From Krischvirus LF73P4, in the sequence record OZ035795.1: DNA of 64,000 bases. One strand, given 5' to 3'. A program made the translations under genes and the position numbers. This document shows positions 10,918-13,685 of the stretch, piece after piece. The notes beneath the pieces were generated by a model. It had not been told where the DNA came from. It made no database searches and was given only the letters and a program-made list of their open reading frames with translations. Position 1 is the stretch's first letter. Every line of letters begins with the position of its first letter.

Positions 10918-11210
10918 TAATTAATCTCCAAAAATCCAACAAGGCCTAAACCGATATAAGTCCAGATACCAATGAAAAAGATGTTAATGCTCATGGCAAG
11001 GATAAACCCTTTCAGAGTTTTGGGATACCCGACCCAATATTCCCGACCATCTTCTAACCGGATCAACTTATTGCCTTGCGAGTCCATATCAACTACAACA
11101 TGTTTATTTCGAGATTGCAATAGATATTGTTTTACAATCTCTACACCCGCCATAATAACAATAACGAAAATAAAAGTCCACACAACAAGATTAATGATAG
11201 TCTCAAGCAT
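10917..11210 (-). CDS. hypothetical membrane protein (97 aa)
   Basis: two hydrophobic segments; SD GGAGGTGATAGAAA-ATG; stop overlaps tdk start. Confidence 0.55.
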   Translation of the reverse strand: MLETIINLVVWTFIFVIVIMAGVEIVKQYLLQSRNKHVVVDMDSQGNKLIRLEDGREYWVGYPKTLKGFILAMSINIFFIGIWTYIGLGLVGFLEIN

Positions 11211-11418
11211 TTTCTATCACCTCCACCCAATCAGGTGTTTCCTGAAAGACTCCTTCACCTTCATGATGGTCGCAACCTTTATTGCTACAGTACATCCACC
11301 AATCCCACATTCCCCACGGTAAACGCTGCATATCGTCGTTACAGCAAGTGAAGATGATAGGCCAACCACATCTACCACATCGGCAGTTTTCCTTCATGTG
11401 TGCGCTATTAGGCTTCAT
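11203..11418 (-). CDS. hypothetical Cys-rich protein (start adjusted)
   Basis: CRCGRCGW ... CC ... C..H.H cysteine cluster; ORF track 11203..11457. Confidence 0.45.
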   Translation of the reverse strand: MKPNSAHMKENCRCGRCGWPIIFTCCNDDMQRLPWGMWDWWMYCSNKGCDHHEGEGVFQETPDWVEVIENA

Positions 11419-11863
11419 ATTCAACCACCACAATATTGATATCCGGCGTAAAATCATTAATAATTTCTTCTACGCATTCCCACTCAAGACCGCCAATCCC
11501 ACAACCAATTTTAGGAATATAGAACGGCTTAACAGTACCTTCAAATGCGGAGTTAAGTTGTTCGAATCCACGGATGATAGCGGAATATTCAGCATTTGGT
11601 CCTGGACGGAATTGCGTATAAAGATTAATACCCATCCAGTTATAACCATTAACGGTATGATGCCAAACATTAAACTCGCCTAGCTTACTCGCCGTTCCTC
11701 TCGGTGTCTTTTTGTCAGTAGCCAATGCTTGCGGGAACTCTTTCGCGATCTTCGCAGCAATACCAGCACCCATAGTATGAAAACAATTACAACCATGAAT
11801 TAAATGACCGTTTCCTTGTTTAAACAGGGCGATGAGATCGCCCTTTACAGTATCAATAATCAT
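11408..11863 (-). CDS. macro-domain protein (ADP-ribose binding/processing)
   Basis: HGCNCFHTMGAGIAAKI and IGCGIGGL motifs typical of macro domains; SD2 context. Confidence 0.75.
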   Translation of the reverse strand: MIIDTVKGDLIALFKQGNGHLIHGCNCFHTMGAGIAAKIAKEFPQALATDKKTPRGTASKLGEFNVWHHTVNGYNWMGINLYTQFRPGPNAEYSAIIRGFEQLNSAFEGTVKPFYIPKIGCGIGGLEWECVEEIINDFTPDINIVVVEYEA

Positions 11864-11878
11864 AATATAAACCTCTCA

Positions 11879-12238
11879 TTAGTCACGGGAAGACAACCCA
11901 GCCATAAAACGGCTTAACAGTGTGTCGCGATAAGCAAAGCATAATTGCTTATCAGGGGCAGTATCACAAAGGTTGCGTTTTGTTTTAGCAAAGCTGGCAA
12001 TACTCAGATCCCACGCTCGATTTTTTCGTTTTTCATCTCGACCTTGTTTGTATGCTTCATCAAGTTCGAGCGCGATAAAATCACTACACATGTTATCATC
12101 ATCACAGAAAGTTTTAATGATCTTTTTGTTGATCTCAAATCCTTTGTATTCGAACTTTGGATAAGGGCGCTCATTACTAGCAAGCGCACCAGCCGAGAAC
12201 ATCATAGCAATCATAGCAATTATTGTCAACTTTTTCAT
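11879..12238 (-). CDS. hypothetical secreted/periplasmic protein (119 aa)
   Basis: signal-peptide-like N-terminus MKKLTIIAMIAMMFSAGALA; several Cys. Confidence 0.55.
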   Translation of the reverse strand: MKKLTIIAMIAMMFSAGALASNERPYPKFEYKGFEINKKIIKTFCDDDNMCSDFIALELDEAYKQGRDEKRKNRAWDLSIASFAKTKRNLCDTAPDKQLCFAYRDTLLSRFMAGLSSRD

Positions 12239-12245
12239 ATATTCC

Positions 12246-12836
12246 TCAATAGCGTTTAGTCTTAAGAATGCCTTTACTCTTTAGATGGTTAGCCTTTTTT
12301 AGTACATCATCAGCATAACCTAACCCGGCTTTATAGTTCCATCCAGCATTGTAAGAAGCTAGCGCGAGTCGGATATTACCGTTTCGAACATCCAGCCAGT
12401 ATGCTAACTCATCCATCGCGTAGAATGCAGAAACCTCGCGATTCATGATAAAGTTGATAGTCTGGCGATCACTCATTTTAACACCGCGCTTTGCATTTTT
12501 CGCTTTCACCGTTTTAAGGTAATTTTGAAATAATCCATAAGCATGATGATTTTTCTTTGGTGCTAAGTTTGCACCCGCGCTTGATTCTTGCCATGCGATA
12601 CCCGCCAGGATGTGACCTAAACCCTTTCCGTTATAGCGAATATTCGGATGGTCCTTTTTCAACTTACCGCTTTTCTCGAATTGCTCGCCGTATTGATAGG
12701 CGAAATGTAAATTATCTAGTTGGTGTGCTGTAAAGTTGTCTATCGGCGCTTTTTTGATCGGTGCGCTAGTCGATGCGTGTGTAGCACCAACGGCTAGTGA
12801 CAGACTCAATACTATCGCTTTTAGAACTTTTAACAT
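12246..12836 (-). CDS. secreted lytic transglycosylase (SLT-domain protein)
   Basis: signal peptide; AWQESSAG, YGLFQ and ASYNAG motifs of the SLT catalytic domain. Confidence 0.75.
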   Translation of the reverse strand: MLKVLKAIVLSLSLAVGATHASTSAPIKKAPIDNFTAHQLDNLHFAYQYGEQFEKSGKLKKDHPNIRYNGKGLGHILAGIAWQESSAGANLAPKKNHHAYGLFQNYLKTVKAKNAKRGVKMSDRQTINFIMNREVSAFYAMDELAYWLDVRNGNIRLALASYNAGWNYKAGLGYADDVLKKANHLKSKGILKTKRY

Positions 12837-12870
12837 TAATTTCTCCTGTTTGGCTTAACTTTCTGATTCC

Positions 12871-12899
12871 ATAATATAGCCCTATCACCAGAAAGTCAA
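12871..12899 (-). promoter_or_regulatory. sigma70-type promoter
   Basis: minus strand TTGACT (12894-12899), 17-nt spacer, TATTAT (12871-12876). Confidence 0.55.
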
Positions 12900-12922
12900 G
12901 CATTATTTTTAACCAATTTCCA

Positions 12923-13345
12923 TTATTGGTCTACCTTCAAAACAACCGCCGACATTTTACCCGCCAGTCGTTTTGGATTCTCTATAATCATTCGGCAGCA
13001 TAGACCGTGATATGGCTTACCCTCTTCGATTAGATCTACTGTCATCCCGATCCACATGTTACCGTCAGTAATTTCTAATCGATTCGGACGGTCTTCCATT
13101 TTCAGGAAGTCGAAGATCTCCGGCAAACGAGTTTCTATCTTATTGAATAGTTCCATTGTCTTATGTTCATCGATATGACGATCGGTTAGACGGTCGATCA
13201 TATGCGGACTAAAGCGAATGAAAATATACTCACCATAACCATCATTCAAGCACTTTTCTTTGATCTGTGCATTGGTTTTGCGCATTTCGGTTTCGAAGAA
13301 TCTACGCAGCTTACTACGGCGAACATGTACGTTAATTGTTTCCAT
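12923..13345 (-). CDS. hypothetical protein (start adjusted to ATG 13345, 140 aa)
   Basis: SD2-like context AGAAAGGATAATAAA-ATG; ORF track 12923..13417. Confidence 0.5.
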   Translation of the reverse strand: METINVHVRRSKLRRFFETEMRKTNAQIKEKCLNDGYGEYIFIRFSPHMIDRLTDRHIDEHKTMELFNKIETRLPEIFDFLKMEDRPNRLEITDGNMWIGMTVDLIEEGKPYHGLCCRMIIENPKRLAGKMSAVVLKVDQ

Positions 13346-13349
13346 TTTA

Positions 13350-13685
13350 TTATCCTTTCTTAAACAAATTGCGAAGCCAGTATACAAACGGGATTTCTTT
13401 AAACTTGAACTTGTCAATAGTTAATTCTTTAGTAGCAAGATGAATACCATAAGCATCATGTGTAACTATATGCCATTTTCTATAGTCCAAATGTGAACAA
13501 CCGTCTGGATCTAGGTTAATAAGAGTTTCTCGCTCACTAGAATTATTTTTCCACAATTTTGTAATAGGATCGCACATAATTCGACCTAGCGTACCATGAA
13601 TAATCTCACAACGGTAAAGTTTTCCAGCAGTGAGATAGGCGCACCCGTCATAGTCGGTATAAACAAACACTTCTTTAACACTCAT
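13350..13685 (-). CDS. hypothetical protein, CSHL-motif family paralog (start adjusted)
   Basis: SD1 and promoter 13717-13745; motif DPDGCSHLDYRKW shared with two upstream ORFs. Confidence 0.5.
   Translation of the reverse strand: MSVKEVFVYTDYDGCAYLTAGKLYRCEIIHGTLGRIMCDPITKLWKNNSSERETLINLDPDGCSHLDYRKWHIVTHDAYGIHLATKELTIDKFKFKEIPFVYWLRNLFKKG

Follow-up and report, generated by a model that had tools for sequence, protein, structure and literature searches.

The DNA analysed here is a 64,000-nucleotide stretch of Krischvirus LF73P4 (sequence record OZ035795.1; hereafter the window), a phage of the RB49/JSE/GEC-3S type. The window shares ~95% nucleotide identity with JSE, RB49 and GEC-3S, and the matched stretch is annotated there as vs.1, vs, regB and tk.4. 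By ORF calling, synteny and profile searches, two adjacent minus-strand ORFs, whose coordinates had been given exactly in an earlier note made from the sequence alone, were identified as the T4 vs.1 and T4 vs orthologues (Table 1). The product of the larger ORF matches the PHROG 600 profile (phrog_600) over residues 6-193 (E=6e-60), and that of the smaller one matches PHROG 1256 (phrog_1256) over its full length (E=1.8e-33); neither protein gives a match in NCBIfam. Deposited phage proteins are 98-100% identical to both products, Vs.1 being 100% identical to a protein of phage FL04 and Vs to the Vs of RB49. The pair is flanked by regB, tk.4 and tk, and vs.1 follows regB and precedes vs here as it does in T4, JSE and GEC-3S. 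Both are thus already catalogued genes, and the finding is an ordinary one with a single annotation paradox. A 2006 publication already reported the similarity of Vs.1 to SLT enzymes in six T4-type genomes, and secretion signals are noted for both proteins in the GenBank record of phage Konradin. The earlier note had named the ORFs neither as vs.1 and vs nor by the label 'valyl-tRNA synthetase modifier' that the smaller one carries. Among precomputed hits, PF26829 is listed for T4 Vs.

Table 1. Positions of the vs.1-vs genes and associated features in the window.
Feature	Position	Strand	Basis
Early promoter of vs.1-vs, sigma-70 type	12871..12899	-	consensus scan, 10/12 match; sequence reading
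Shine-Dalgarno AGGAG of vs.1	12843..12847	-	sequence reading; 6 nt 5' of ATG
vs.1 orthologue, predicted exported SLT/GH23-type lytic transglycosylase precursor, 196 aa	12246..12836	-	ORF, Pfam, PHROG, AF2, Foldseek
Predicted Sec/SPase I signal peptide, Vs.1 residues 1-21	12774..12836	-	heuristic n-h-c; cleavage after T-H-A
Glu84 codon, predicted catalytic acid, motif W-Q-E-S-S	12585..12587	-	conservation; hhalign
vs.1 stop/vs Shine-Dalgarno overlap	12243..12248	-	sequence reading
vs orthologue, predicted exported four-helix protein precursor, 119 aa	11879..12238	-	ORF, PHROG, alignments, AF2
Predicted signal peptide, Vs residues 1-20	12179..12238	-	heuristic; cleavage after A-L-A

The promoter assigned to the pair is preceded by an A-rich stretch and consists of a -35 element TTGACT (12899-12894), a 17-nt spacer and a -10 element TATTAT (12876-12871). 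The sigma70-type promoter that the earlier note had read from the sequence holds up as a consensus match, and GEC-3S carries an annotated promoter with -35/-10 signals at the homologous position. From this element (12899-12871), host RNA polymerase would transcribe vs.1 and vs early in infection. Placement in the early region likewise agrees with the neighbouring genes and with T4, in which vs and vs.1 belong to the early class as RNA and to the middle class as protein (PMC9697503 supplement). The arrangement differs from T4 in the spacing, the regB-vs.1 spacer being 86 nt long with its own promoter in this phage, whereas the T4 regB stop lies 7 nt from the vs.1 start. The Shine-Dalgarno sequence of vs.1 includes a GGAG tetranucleotide, at which cleavage by RegB is possible, going by an annotation note on that nuclease. 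At the junction of the two genes, the vs.1 stop codon TGA (12248-12246) overlaps the Shine-Dalgarno sequence GAGGA of vs (12247-12243). As only 7 nt separate this stop from the vs ATG, the two genes are likely to be translationally coupled. Overlapping or abutting stops and starts also occur in T4, STP4-a, KPV15, CC31, Acj133 and Konradin, as well as in 38+6 IMG/VR loci.

The assignment of Vs.1 to an enzyme family rests on a profile match, on conserved motifs and on a predicted fold. Vs.1 matches Pfam SLT (PF01464) over residues 76-167 with E=6.6e-6 and 26.1 bits, above the curated gathering cut-off of 21.3 bits, which bears out the SLT-type enzyme proposed earlier. The motifs are E84-S85, G101-L-F-Q104 and S161-Y-N-A-G165; ES and GLFQ had been read correctly in the earlier note, while its 'AYNAG' is in fact A-S-Y-N-A-G. 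Across 21 Vs.1 homologues, with identities down to ~40%, E84-S85, G101, F103, Q104, S161, Y162, A164 and G165 are invariant and N163 is conserved in at least 90%; S86 and the longer stretches HHAYGxFQN and SYNAG likewise vary little or not at all. The catalytic Glu on which the earlier proposal depended is accordingly conserved throughout this set. In hhalign alignments, E84 is aligned with the E-S motif both in E. coli MltE ('AIES') and in Slt70 ('RQES'); the Glu of this motif is the catalytic residue in these enzymes. No second conserved carboxylate was found between E84 and motif II in the alignment of homologues, a feature that fits transglycosylases rather than hydrolases. Furthermore, an AF2 model of Vs.1 (pLDDT 82.8, pTM 0.76) gave, as its top 17 Foldseek matches, MltD, Slt, goose-type lysozyme and GH23 chitinase, with probabilities mostly of 0.97-1.0 (lowest 0.92), TM scores of 0.39-0.51 and E-values of 0.01-0.1. 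Taken from sequence profile and modelled structure, Vs.1 is most likely a lytic transglycosylase, with a putative lysozyme-like fold (GH23, SLT family 1) and Glu84 as its presumed single catalytic acid.

The same motifs could be relics in a catalytically dead, or only peptidoglycan-binding, protein of lysozyme fold. The profile score is weak (26 bits), searches of the PDB with the single Vs.1 sequence and with a profile returned nothing relevant, hhalign comparisons with single transglycosylase sequences were not significant, and a literature search found no published activity for any member of the family. Against this stand the catalytic Glu and all three SLT motifs, invariant down to ~40% identity, and the retention of the family in more than 2000 phage genomes from several families (Straboviridae, Felixounavirus, Ackermannviridae). 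Since relics are seldom so conserved, loss of catalysis is improbable, and markedly more so than the other alternatives considered below. A pattern scan of 185,579 bacterial species genomes did not find the Vs.1 family.

Export signals were judged with a home-made n-h-c heuristic that looks for a positive n-region, an h-region of 7-17 residues and small residues at -3 and -1. By this measure both proteins begin with a signal peptide, as the earlier note had proposed for each of them: the N-terminus of Vs.1 reads MLKVLK-AIVLSLSLAVGA-THA/STS and that of Vs reads MKK-LTIIAMIAMMFSAGA-LA/SNE, the slash marking the predicted cleavage site. A crude screen of the window was passed by 6 of its 112 non-overlapping ORFs, and Vs.1 and Vs are the only classic signal peptides among the six; the others resemble small membrane proteins. 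The n-h-c architecture is present in 20 of the 21 Vs.1 homologues despite divergent sequence, the one exception resembling a truncated gene call. More distant relatives of Vs.1 also carry export signals, some of the lipoprotein type (a Vibrio phage). Every full-length member of the Vs family shows signal-peptide architecture, and the Karamvirus-type homologues (CC31, P0068) have a lipobox, L-S-G-C. On these grounds Vs.1 and Vs are predicted to reside in the periplasm after signal cleavage; export by a cleavable Sec signal would leave Vs.1 as a basic periplasmic protein of ~20 kDa (computed for the predicted mature form: ~175 aa, 19.7 kDa, pI 9.9), and Vs is most likely exported too (~99 aa, 11.6 kDa computed for the mature form). 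The mature N-termini predicted in T4 are DTSYTEIR... for Vs and SEHTFSNVQLDNMR for Vs.1.

Two cellular roles for an exported murein enzyme can be set aside. SAR endolysins have a weakly hydrophobic N-terminal transmembrane domain of ~18-20 or more residues and lack a cleavage site. Vs.1 was rejected as a member of this class, its h-region of ~12 residues, followed by a cleavage-type T-H-A/S, being too short for a membrane anchor. The phage encodes a separate endolysin, an M15 peptidase (16666-17055), in agreement with the earlier statement that the enzyme is distinct from the lysis protein. A contribution to DNA entry, also suggested earlier, is implausible on grounds of timing, as vs.1 is expressed only once the genome is inside, and nothing suggests packaging into the virion. 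The pair would thus serve neither as a DNA-entry device nor as a lysis enzyme.

The smaller protein shows the profile match, the length class (about 100-135 aa) and the four aligned cysteines of the T4 Vs family. Its cysteines C45, C51, C91 and C100 are invariant in two family alignments. An AF2 model (pLDDT 77) contains helices at 31-45, 49-71, 76-86 and 97-115, and the four invariant cysteines are located at two helix-hairpin turns when model and alignment are combined. Vs would accordingly fold as a small helical bundle, presumably with local disulfides C45-C51 and C91-C100. A PDB fold search with Vs gave no meaningful match, and among 1.84 billion representatives the family comprises only 26 clusters, all of small single-domain proteins, with no informative distant relative. 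Tree distances put the evolutionary rate of Vs at ~3 times that of Vs.1 or RegB, and tblastn searches with T4 or RB49-type Vs did not retrieve the other subgroup. T4 Vs (NP_049724) shares with the present protein its length class, a signal-like N-terminus, the four aligned cysteines and a C-terminal GL motif; however, identity is just 29%, and the ValRS-modifier function has been studied in T4 alone.

The two proteins are linked by gene order. The small protein follows the enzyme, the stop of one gene overlapping the start of the next, in nine Straboviridae genera sampled, and in IMG/VR Vs.1 directly abuts upstream of Vs in 44 of the 44 loci that have Vs. Phage Miller, with one ORF between the two, is the sole exception to this adjacency. 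Vs.1 relatives do occur without Vs, namely in 31 of 69 IMG/VR viral loci and, among sampled GenBank records, in Felixounavirus, Kuttervirus and a Vibrio phage; no small secreted Cys-rich ORF was found beside the lone Vs.1 in those 31 IMG/VR loci. A mirror-tree test on 30 non-identical loci, with RegB as control, gave r=0.61 for Vs.1-Vs, r=0.86 for Vs.1-RegB and a partial correlation of 0.09 for Vs.1-Vs after controlling for RegB, the test being weak as Vs distances are near saturation. Specific co-evolution of Vs.1 and Vs thus finds no support in this weak test. Because Vs.1 often stands alone and a co-evolution signal is lacking, the functional link that we infer between the two may be mere conserved gene order.

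A small exported protein next to a muramidase-fold enzyme recalls, in concept, T4 spackle (Sp) with the gp5 lysozyme and the Ivy, MliC, PliG and LprI pairs. In one alternative model, Vs.1 would be a potentially self-damaging periplasmic murein hydrolase for auxiliary lysis or wall loosening, with Vs as its dedicated periplasmic inhibitor or regulator, in the manner of an effector-immunity pair or spackle; the earlier note had offered a regulator or inhibitor for the small ORF. Predicted export of both proteins, the constant order of vs.1 before vs across nine genera and all IMG/VR loci with Vs, and the harm done by deletion of vs in T4, as would follow from loss of an antidote, speak for it. 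The comparison nevertheless breaks down at several points. Nearly half of the IMG/VR loci have the enzyme without the supposed antidote, the partial correlation is close to nil, and insertions in T4 vs.1 are depleted (LB reads per site like those of vs; M9 log2FC -0.87), being neither neutral nor beneficial; T4 genetics is therefore not antidote-like. LprI/DUF1311 is a helical, four-Cys, periplasmic family. With E. coli YecT, confirmed as PF07007, as reference, Vs was rejected as an inhibitor of this type (hhalign probability 0.45%), and no Vs member matched PF07007 at E up to 10. More generally, Vs shows no LprI likeness in sequence or fold, no inhibitor Pfam match at E values up to 10 and no informative fold match. 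An inhibitory role for Vs is consequently unlikely, and the earlier suggestion draws no support from these indirect tests.

The strongest competitor for the role of Vs comes from its name. In PHROG and GenBank the family is labelled 'valyl-tRNA synthetase modifier', which implies a cytoplasmic role: as the tau factor, Vs would bind the valyl-tRNA synthetase of the host, its hydrophobic N-terminus would be unused or only partly used for export, and Vs.1 would be an unrelated periplasmic enzyme, next to Vs simply by conserved T4-type gene order. Classical T4 vs genetics and biochemistry stand behind this label, in the work of Muller and Marchin (1975/1977; cited in PMC8076793). The T4 vs factor was reportedly bound to ValRS and roughly 10 kDa in size. 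The missing co-evolution signal between Vs.1 and Vs is also as this explanation would have it. Fitness data from T4 add to its case. On LB both vs and vs.1 are non-essential, and in liquid competition insertion reads per site for the two genes are ~10-fold below those of neighbours (10.1101/2025.11.20.689424). In M9 glucose, log2FC is -2.19 for vs and -0.87 for vs.1; the vs defect in minimal medium is the strongest of all T4 genes in this 2025 transposon screen, and a clean deletion agrees (10.1101/2025.11.20.689424). Such a defect is expected if the economy of amino acids or tRNA charging matters, and it suits a translation-related role no worse than an envelope role. The depletion of vs.1 insertions may be simple polarity on vs.

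Other evidence runs against a cytoplasmic Vs. Signal-peptide architecture marks every full-length family member, with a lipobox in the CC31-type proteins, and four invariant cysteines at two hairpin turns are a common trait of oxidised proteins in the periplasm. The original T4 GenBank record says only 'ORF 60.9', without the vs label, and Vs evolves at ~3 times the rate of Vs.1 or RegB even though its supposed target ValRS is conserved. The predicted export itself argues against modification of ValRS by Vs in vivo. In addition, full-length T4 Vs made in the cytoplasm was insoluble (PMC8076793). A cytoplasmic Vs is, on balance, a possible but less favoured explanation. Its counterpart, a disulfide-bonded periplasmic Vs (lipid-anchored in some phages) that works in the envelope with Vs.1 and whose ValRS label is mis-assigned or incomplete, is equally tentative.

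The preferred interpretation, to which a probability of roughly 0.7 can be attached, is broader: the vs.1-vs pair of RB49-type phages would encode an exported transglycosylase and an exported small protein that form an accessory envelope module. By the chemistry that we infer, Vs.1 would cut MurNAc-GlcNAc bonds in the host sacculus and leave 1,6-anhydro-MurNAc ends. The module would target the envelope once the cell is infected and would be non-essential yet fitness-enhancing. As a re-description of two catalogued T4-type genes, the finding itself changes little, and its value is rather that of a pointer, as relatives of Vs.1 occur in more than 2000 phage genomes and a function has been demonstrated for none. 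Should Vs truly be periplasmic, a 50-year-old textbook assignment and the annotation propagated from it would need revision, and phages would turn out to reshape the host sacculus from within the periplasm at an early stage of infection; should it act there with Vs.1, the ValRS label copied to hundreds of phage genomes would be wrong or at best incomplete, and the minimal-medium defect of T4 vs would stem from the envelope and not from translation.

Comparison with known systems places Vs.1 at a distance from its nearest functional analogues. Slt70, MltE/EmtA and MltD resemble it in the lysozyme-like helical fold, in the E-S, GLxQ and (A/S)YNxG motifs and in the export signal, whereas family-1 transglycosylases are remote from it in sequence and the HHAYGxFQN signature is found only in the Vs.1 family. 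VirB1, IpgF, EtgA and P19 are specialised small transglycosylases of secretion and conjugation systems, and Vs.1 resembles them in its small single-domain size; we know of no transport machine that goes with Vs.1. The closest counterpart is T4 Vs.1 (NP_049725), the orthologue located between regB and vs. Identity across T4-type phages is 47-52% (52% for T4) over residues 35-192, and the signal-like N-terminus and the E-S, GxFQ and SYNxG motifs are common to both proteins. The RB49-type protein is longer than that of T4 by 15 residues and has additional sequence following its signal peptide.

The adjacent genes at 11879-12836 are vs.1 and vs of a T4-like phage, as follows from a gene order that matches T4 (regB-vs.1-vs-tk.4...tk), from protein identities and from PHROG families. 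Identity is 100% between the 196-aa Vs.1 and a phage FL04 protein, and likewise between the 119-aa Vs and RB49 Vs. By megablast, 58 phage records, all RB49/JSE/GEC-3S-type coliphages of the genus Krischvirus, match 11400-13500 at 90-99% identity, with vs.1, vs, regB and tk.4 annotated under the match. PHROGs lists the Vs.1 family as of unknown function and that of Vs as 'valyl tRNA synthetase modifier'. The earlier note, which described a secreted SLT-type enzyme with a small secreted partner, was correct in its observation; the genes are already known and named, and the novelty is low. Published work and GenBank already contain both predictions: the vs.1-SLT similarity was published in 2006 for six T4-type genomes, citing earlier PSI-BLAST matches (PMC1524935), and for Acinetobacter phage Konradin Vs.1 is annotated as 'putative lytic murein transglycosylase, putative periplasmic secretion signal' and Vs as 'putative periplasmic secretion signal'.

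Features of the vs.1-vs region and of related loci (L004-L009, comparison phage loci in their own coordinates)
Feature	Coordinates	Strand	Remark
vs.1 orthologue, 196 aa	12246-12836	-	ORF call; phrog_600 E=6e-60
vs orthologue, 119 aa	11879-12238	-	ORF call; phrog_1256 E=1.8e-33
regB	12923-13417		upstream of vs.1
tk.4 orthologue, macro domain	11408-11863	-	downstream of vs; Pfam E=1.9e-6, phrog_335
Promoter TTGACT-17-TATTAT	12899-12871	-	within 86-nt regB-vs.1 spacer
vs.1 Shine-Dalgarno AGGAG	12847-12843	-	read from sequence
vs.1 stop TGA	12248-12246	-	
Endolysin, M15 peptidase	16666-17055	-	Peptidase_M15_4 E=4.4e-12; phrog_465 endolysin
Hydrophobic ORF, 63 aa	17084-17275		phrog_15016; directly upstream of endolysin
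Third signal-peptide ORF after vs	L004 1818-2219; L005 1740-2132; L006 1737-2156		
Third signal-peptide ORF after vs	L007 1722-2141; L008 1830-2255; L009 1779-2219		

The best-supported reading of vs.1-vs is an exported early envelope pair. Herein, two early, co-expressed proteins would be exported, Vs.1 as a periplasmic lytic transglycosylase and Vs as a small helical protein stabilised by disulfides, and would jointly form a non-essential, fitness-raising module that acts on the envelope once the cell has been infected. Export was judged by a simple n-h-c test. By this test, the signal peptides claimed for both ORFs are predicted, with N-termini reading MLKVLK / AIVLSLSLAVGA / THA|STS in Vs.1 and MKK / LTIIAMIAMMFSAGA / LA|SNE in Vs. 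Only 6 of 112 non-overlapping window ORFs passed, among which the adjacent vs.1 and vs are the sole classic cases; the other four resemble small membrane proteins or a spanin. The architecture is kept, with divergent sequence, in all full-length Vs.1 homologues, in distant relatives from uncultured phages and in all Vs homologues. Moreover, a Vs.1 relative of a Vibrio phage is annotated as a lipoprotein, and a classic lipobox (L-S-G-C) is present in Vs proteins of the CC31 type. A signal-anchor (SAR) domain was excluded for Vs.1 because its h-region, at about 12 residues, is too short.

The SLT catalytic motifs claimed for Vs.1 are borne out. A profile search matched Pfam SLT with 26.1 bits (E=6.6e-6; gathering threshold 21.3), and all three family-1 lytic transglycosylase signatures are present and conserved, since 21 aligned homologues, with identity down to 40%, show no variation at E84, S86, H97, A99-Y-G101, F103-Q-N105, S161-Y162 or A164-G165. 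The predicted catalytic Glu is thus conserved, as are G101, F103 and Q104 of GLFQ, and motif III reads A-S-Y-N-A-G rather than 'AYNAG'. In profile-to-sequence alignments, whose statistics are weak against single sequences, W-Q-E84-S-S corresponds to A-I-E-S-G of E. coli MltE and R-Q-E-S-A of Slt70, and AYGLFQ to their AIGLMQ and ASGLMQ. An AlphaFold2 model built on the alignment (pLDDT 82.8, pTM 0.76) is confident except for the N-terminal 30 residues; its best PDB fold matches are Pseudomonas MltD and Slt, goose-type lysozyme and GH23 chitinase, with probabilities mostly of 0.97-1.0, TM-scores of only ~0.4-0.5 and E-values of 0.01-0.1. As PDB sequence searches with Vs.1 found nothing, kinship to these enzymes is real but remote. 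No second conserved carboxylate lies between E84 and motif II in the 21 homologues, and a single carboxylate would fit a transglycosylase better than a hydrolase.

The proposal of a murein enzyme separate from the endolysin also holds, the lysis enzyme being a distinct M15 peptidase, unlike the e-type lysozyme of T4. Because of this, Vs.1 is the sole predicted glycan-strand-cleaving enzyme among the window genes examined. A role in DNA entry is excluded, as Vs.1 is made only after entry.

The AlphaFold2 model of Vs (pLDDT 77) has four helices, and four cysteines (C45, C51, C91, C100) are invariant among homologues. The two cysteines of each pair flank a turn between helices, an arrangement that points to two local disulfides with this presumed pairing. 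The family is tiny: at 50% identity it makes up 26 clusters out of 1.84 billion representatives, with lengths of 77-134 aa throughout. A PDB fold search with the model gave no informative relative, and a local Pfam library no family match, the precomputed label PF26829 postdating that library. Membership of LprI/DUF1311, a helical four-cysteine family of lysozyme inhibitors, was tested by profile comparison and rejected.

The idea that Vs inhibits Vs.1 is disfavoured on four grounds: Vs resembles no inhibitor family, Vs.1 frequently occurs without it, T4 insertions do not resemble antidote loss, and no special Vs.1-Vs co-evolution was seen in a mirror-tree of 30 loci (r=0.61; partial correlation given RegB, 0.09). 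Vs.1 relatives in 2085 phage records belong to Straboviridae, Felixounavirus (labelled 'lysin'), Kuttervirus and Vibrio Ackermannviridae, and Vs is limited to a subset of Straboviridae. Among 69 IMG/VR loci containing a relative of Vs.1, Vs lies directly downstream in 38 and is absent from 31; Vs.1 lies directly upstream in 6/6 loci found with a Vs query. Vs therefore never occurs without Vs.1, yet Vs.1 thrives alone. Only in phage Miller does an ORF separate the two genes. Vs evolves about 3 times faster than Vs.1.

Regarding expression, the sigma70-type promoter claimed for vs.1 is present and coincides with a promoter annotated in GEC-3S. Translation of the two genes is likely coupled, since only 7 nt lie between the vs.1 TGA and the ATG of vs, whose Shine-Dalgarno (GAGGA) shares bases with that stop codon. 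The two T4 genes fall in the early class by RNA and in the middle class by protein (PMC9697503 supplement). GGAG, the cut motif of the endoribonuclease RegB, encoded directly upstream, lies within the vs.1 AGGAG site (12843-12846, minus strand) and is absent from the window vs site and from the T4 vs.1 site (GAGG). Given its presence in the vs.1 site and not in that of vs, Vs.1 translation may be shut off early in this lineage while Vs translation goes on. The best promoter-like match of a 3-kb scan (TTGACA-17-TATGAT, extended TG, 11/12; 12201-12229, minus strand) falls in the first vs codons; it may drive tk.4 and the genes beyond it from within vs, or may have arisen by chance in AT-rich sequence that encodes a signal peptide.

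In a 2025 T4 transposon preprint, vs and vs.1 were non-essential on LB, with 30/32 and 46/52 TA sites hit; in liquid competition, the two genes averaged 26.6 and 22.6 reads per site, against 289.6, 178.6 and 652 for neighbouring tk.4, regB and vs.3. On M9 glucose versus LB, vs showed the strongest depletion of all genes (log2FC -2.19, adjusted p ~0), vs.1 reached -0.87 (p=0.0055, adjusted 0.155), and a clean vs deletion plated poorly on M9 glucose (10.1101/2025.11.20.689424). Disruption of either gene thus costs T4 fitness in the same direction, although the vs.1 effect could be polarity on vs. Full-length T4 Vs with an N-terminal His tag was insoluble in E. coli (PMC8076793).

By its universal annotation, the Vs family modifies cytoplasmic valyl-tRNA synthetase (ValRS), whereas all sequence features predict export; the original T4 sequence record names the vs ORF only 'ORF 60.9'. 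The purified ValRS-modifying factor is reportedly about 10 kDa, which would fit processed T4 Vs (predicted mature 11.0 kDa; precursor 13.1 kDa), a size that does not settle the site of action. The minimal-medium phenotype is compatible with an envelope or a ValRS role alike. This localisation paradox is the sole lead worth a cheap test.

In many T4-like genera, a third signal-bearing ORF of 130-146 aa overlaps the vs stop, matching phrog_4957 (unknown function) in the two copies scanned, CC31 and Konradin; it is lacking in the window and T4. Konradin adds a fourth, then rI, giving a run of predicted periplasmic proteins. In Felixounavirus Andreotti (L010 2501-3049), the Vs.1 relative, annotated 'putative lysin', lies between rIIB and polynucleotide kinase, ~1.2 kb from i-/o-spanin genes, with no Vs-like gene. 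The annotated vs.1 is a 98-aa N-terminal fragment followed by a 270-nt gap in Proteus phage PM2 (L009 903-1199) and 120 aa from an internal Met in Klebsiella phage KPV15 (L005 1061-1423), vs being intact in both; the cause may be a frameshift, a sequencing error or real vs.1 decay with vs kept.

As T4 tk.4 was identified as AdfM, an anti-DarTG2 factor, in a 2025 preprint, an anti-defence gene probably adjoins the pair in the window. Beyond tk.4 lie a zinc-binding ORF, a small membrane ORF and then tk. The longest version of the Phage_zn_bind ORF (84 aa, 11203-11457, minus strand) overlaps the tk.4 end by 50 nt; its true start is probably an internal Met, since GEC-3S annotates shorter genes there.
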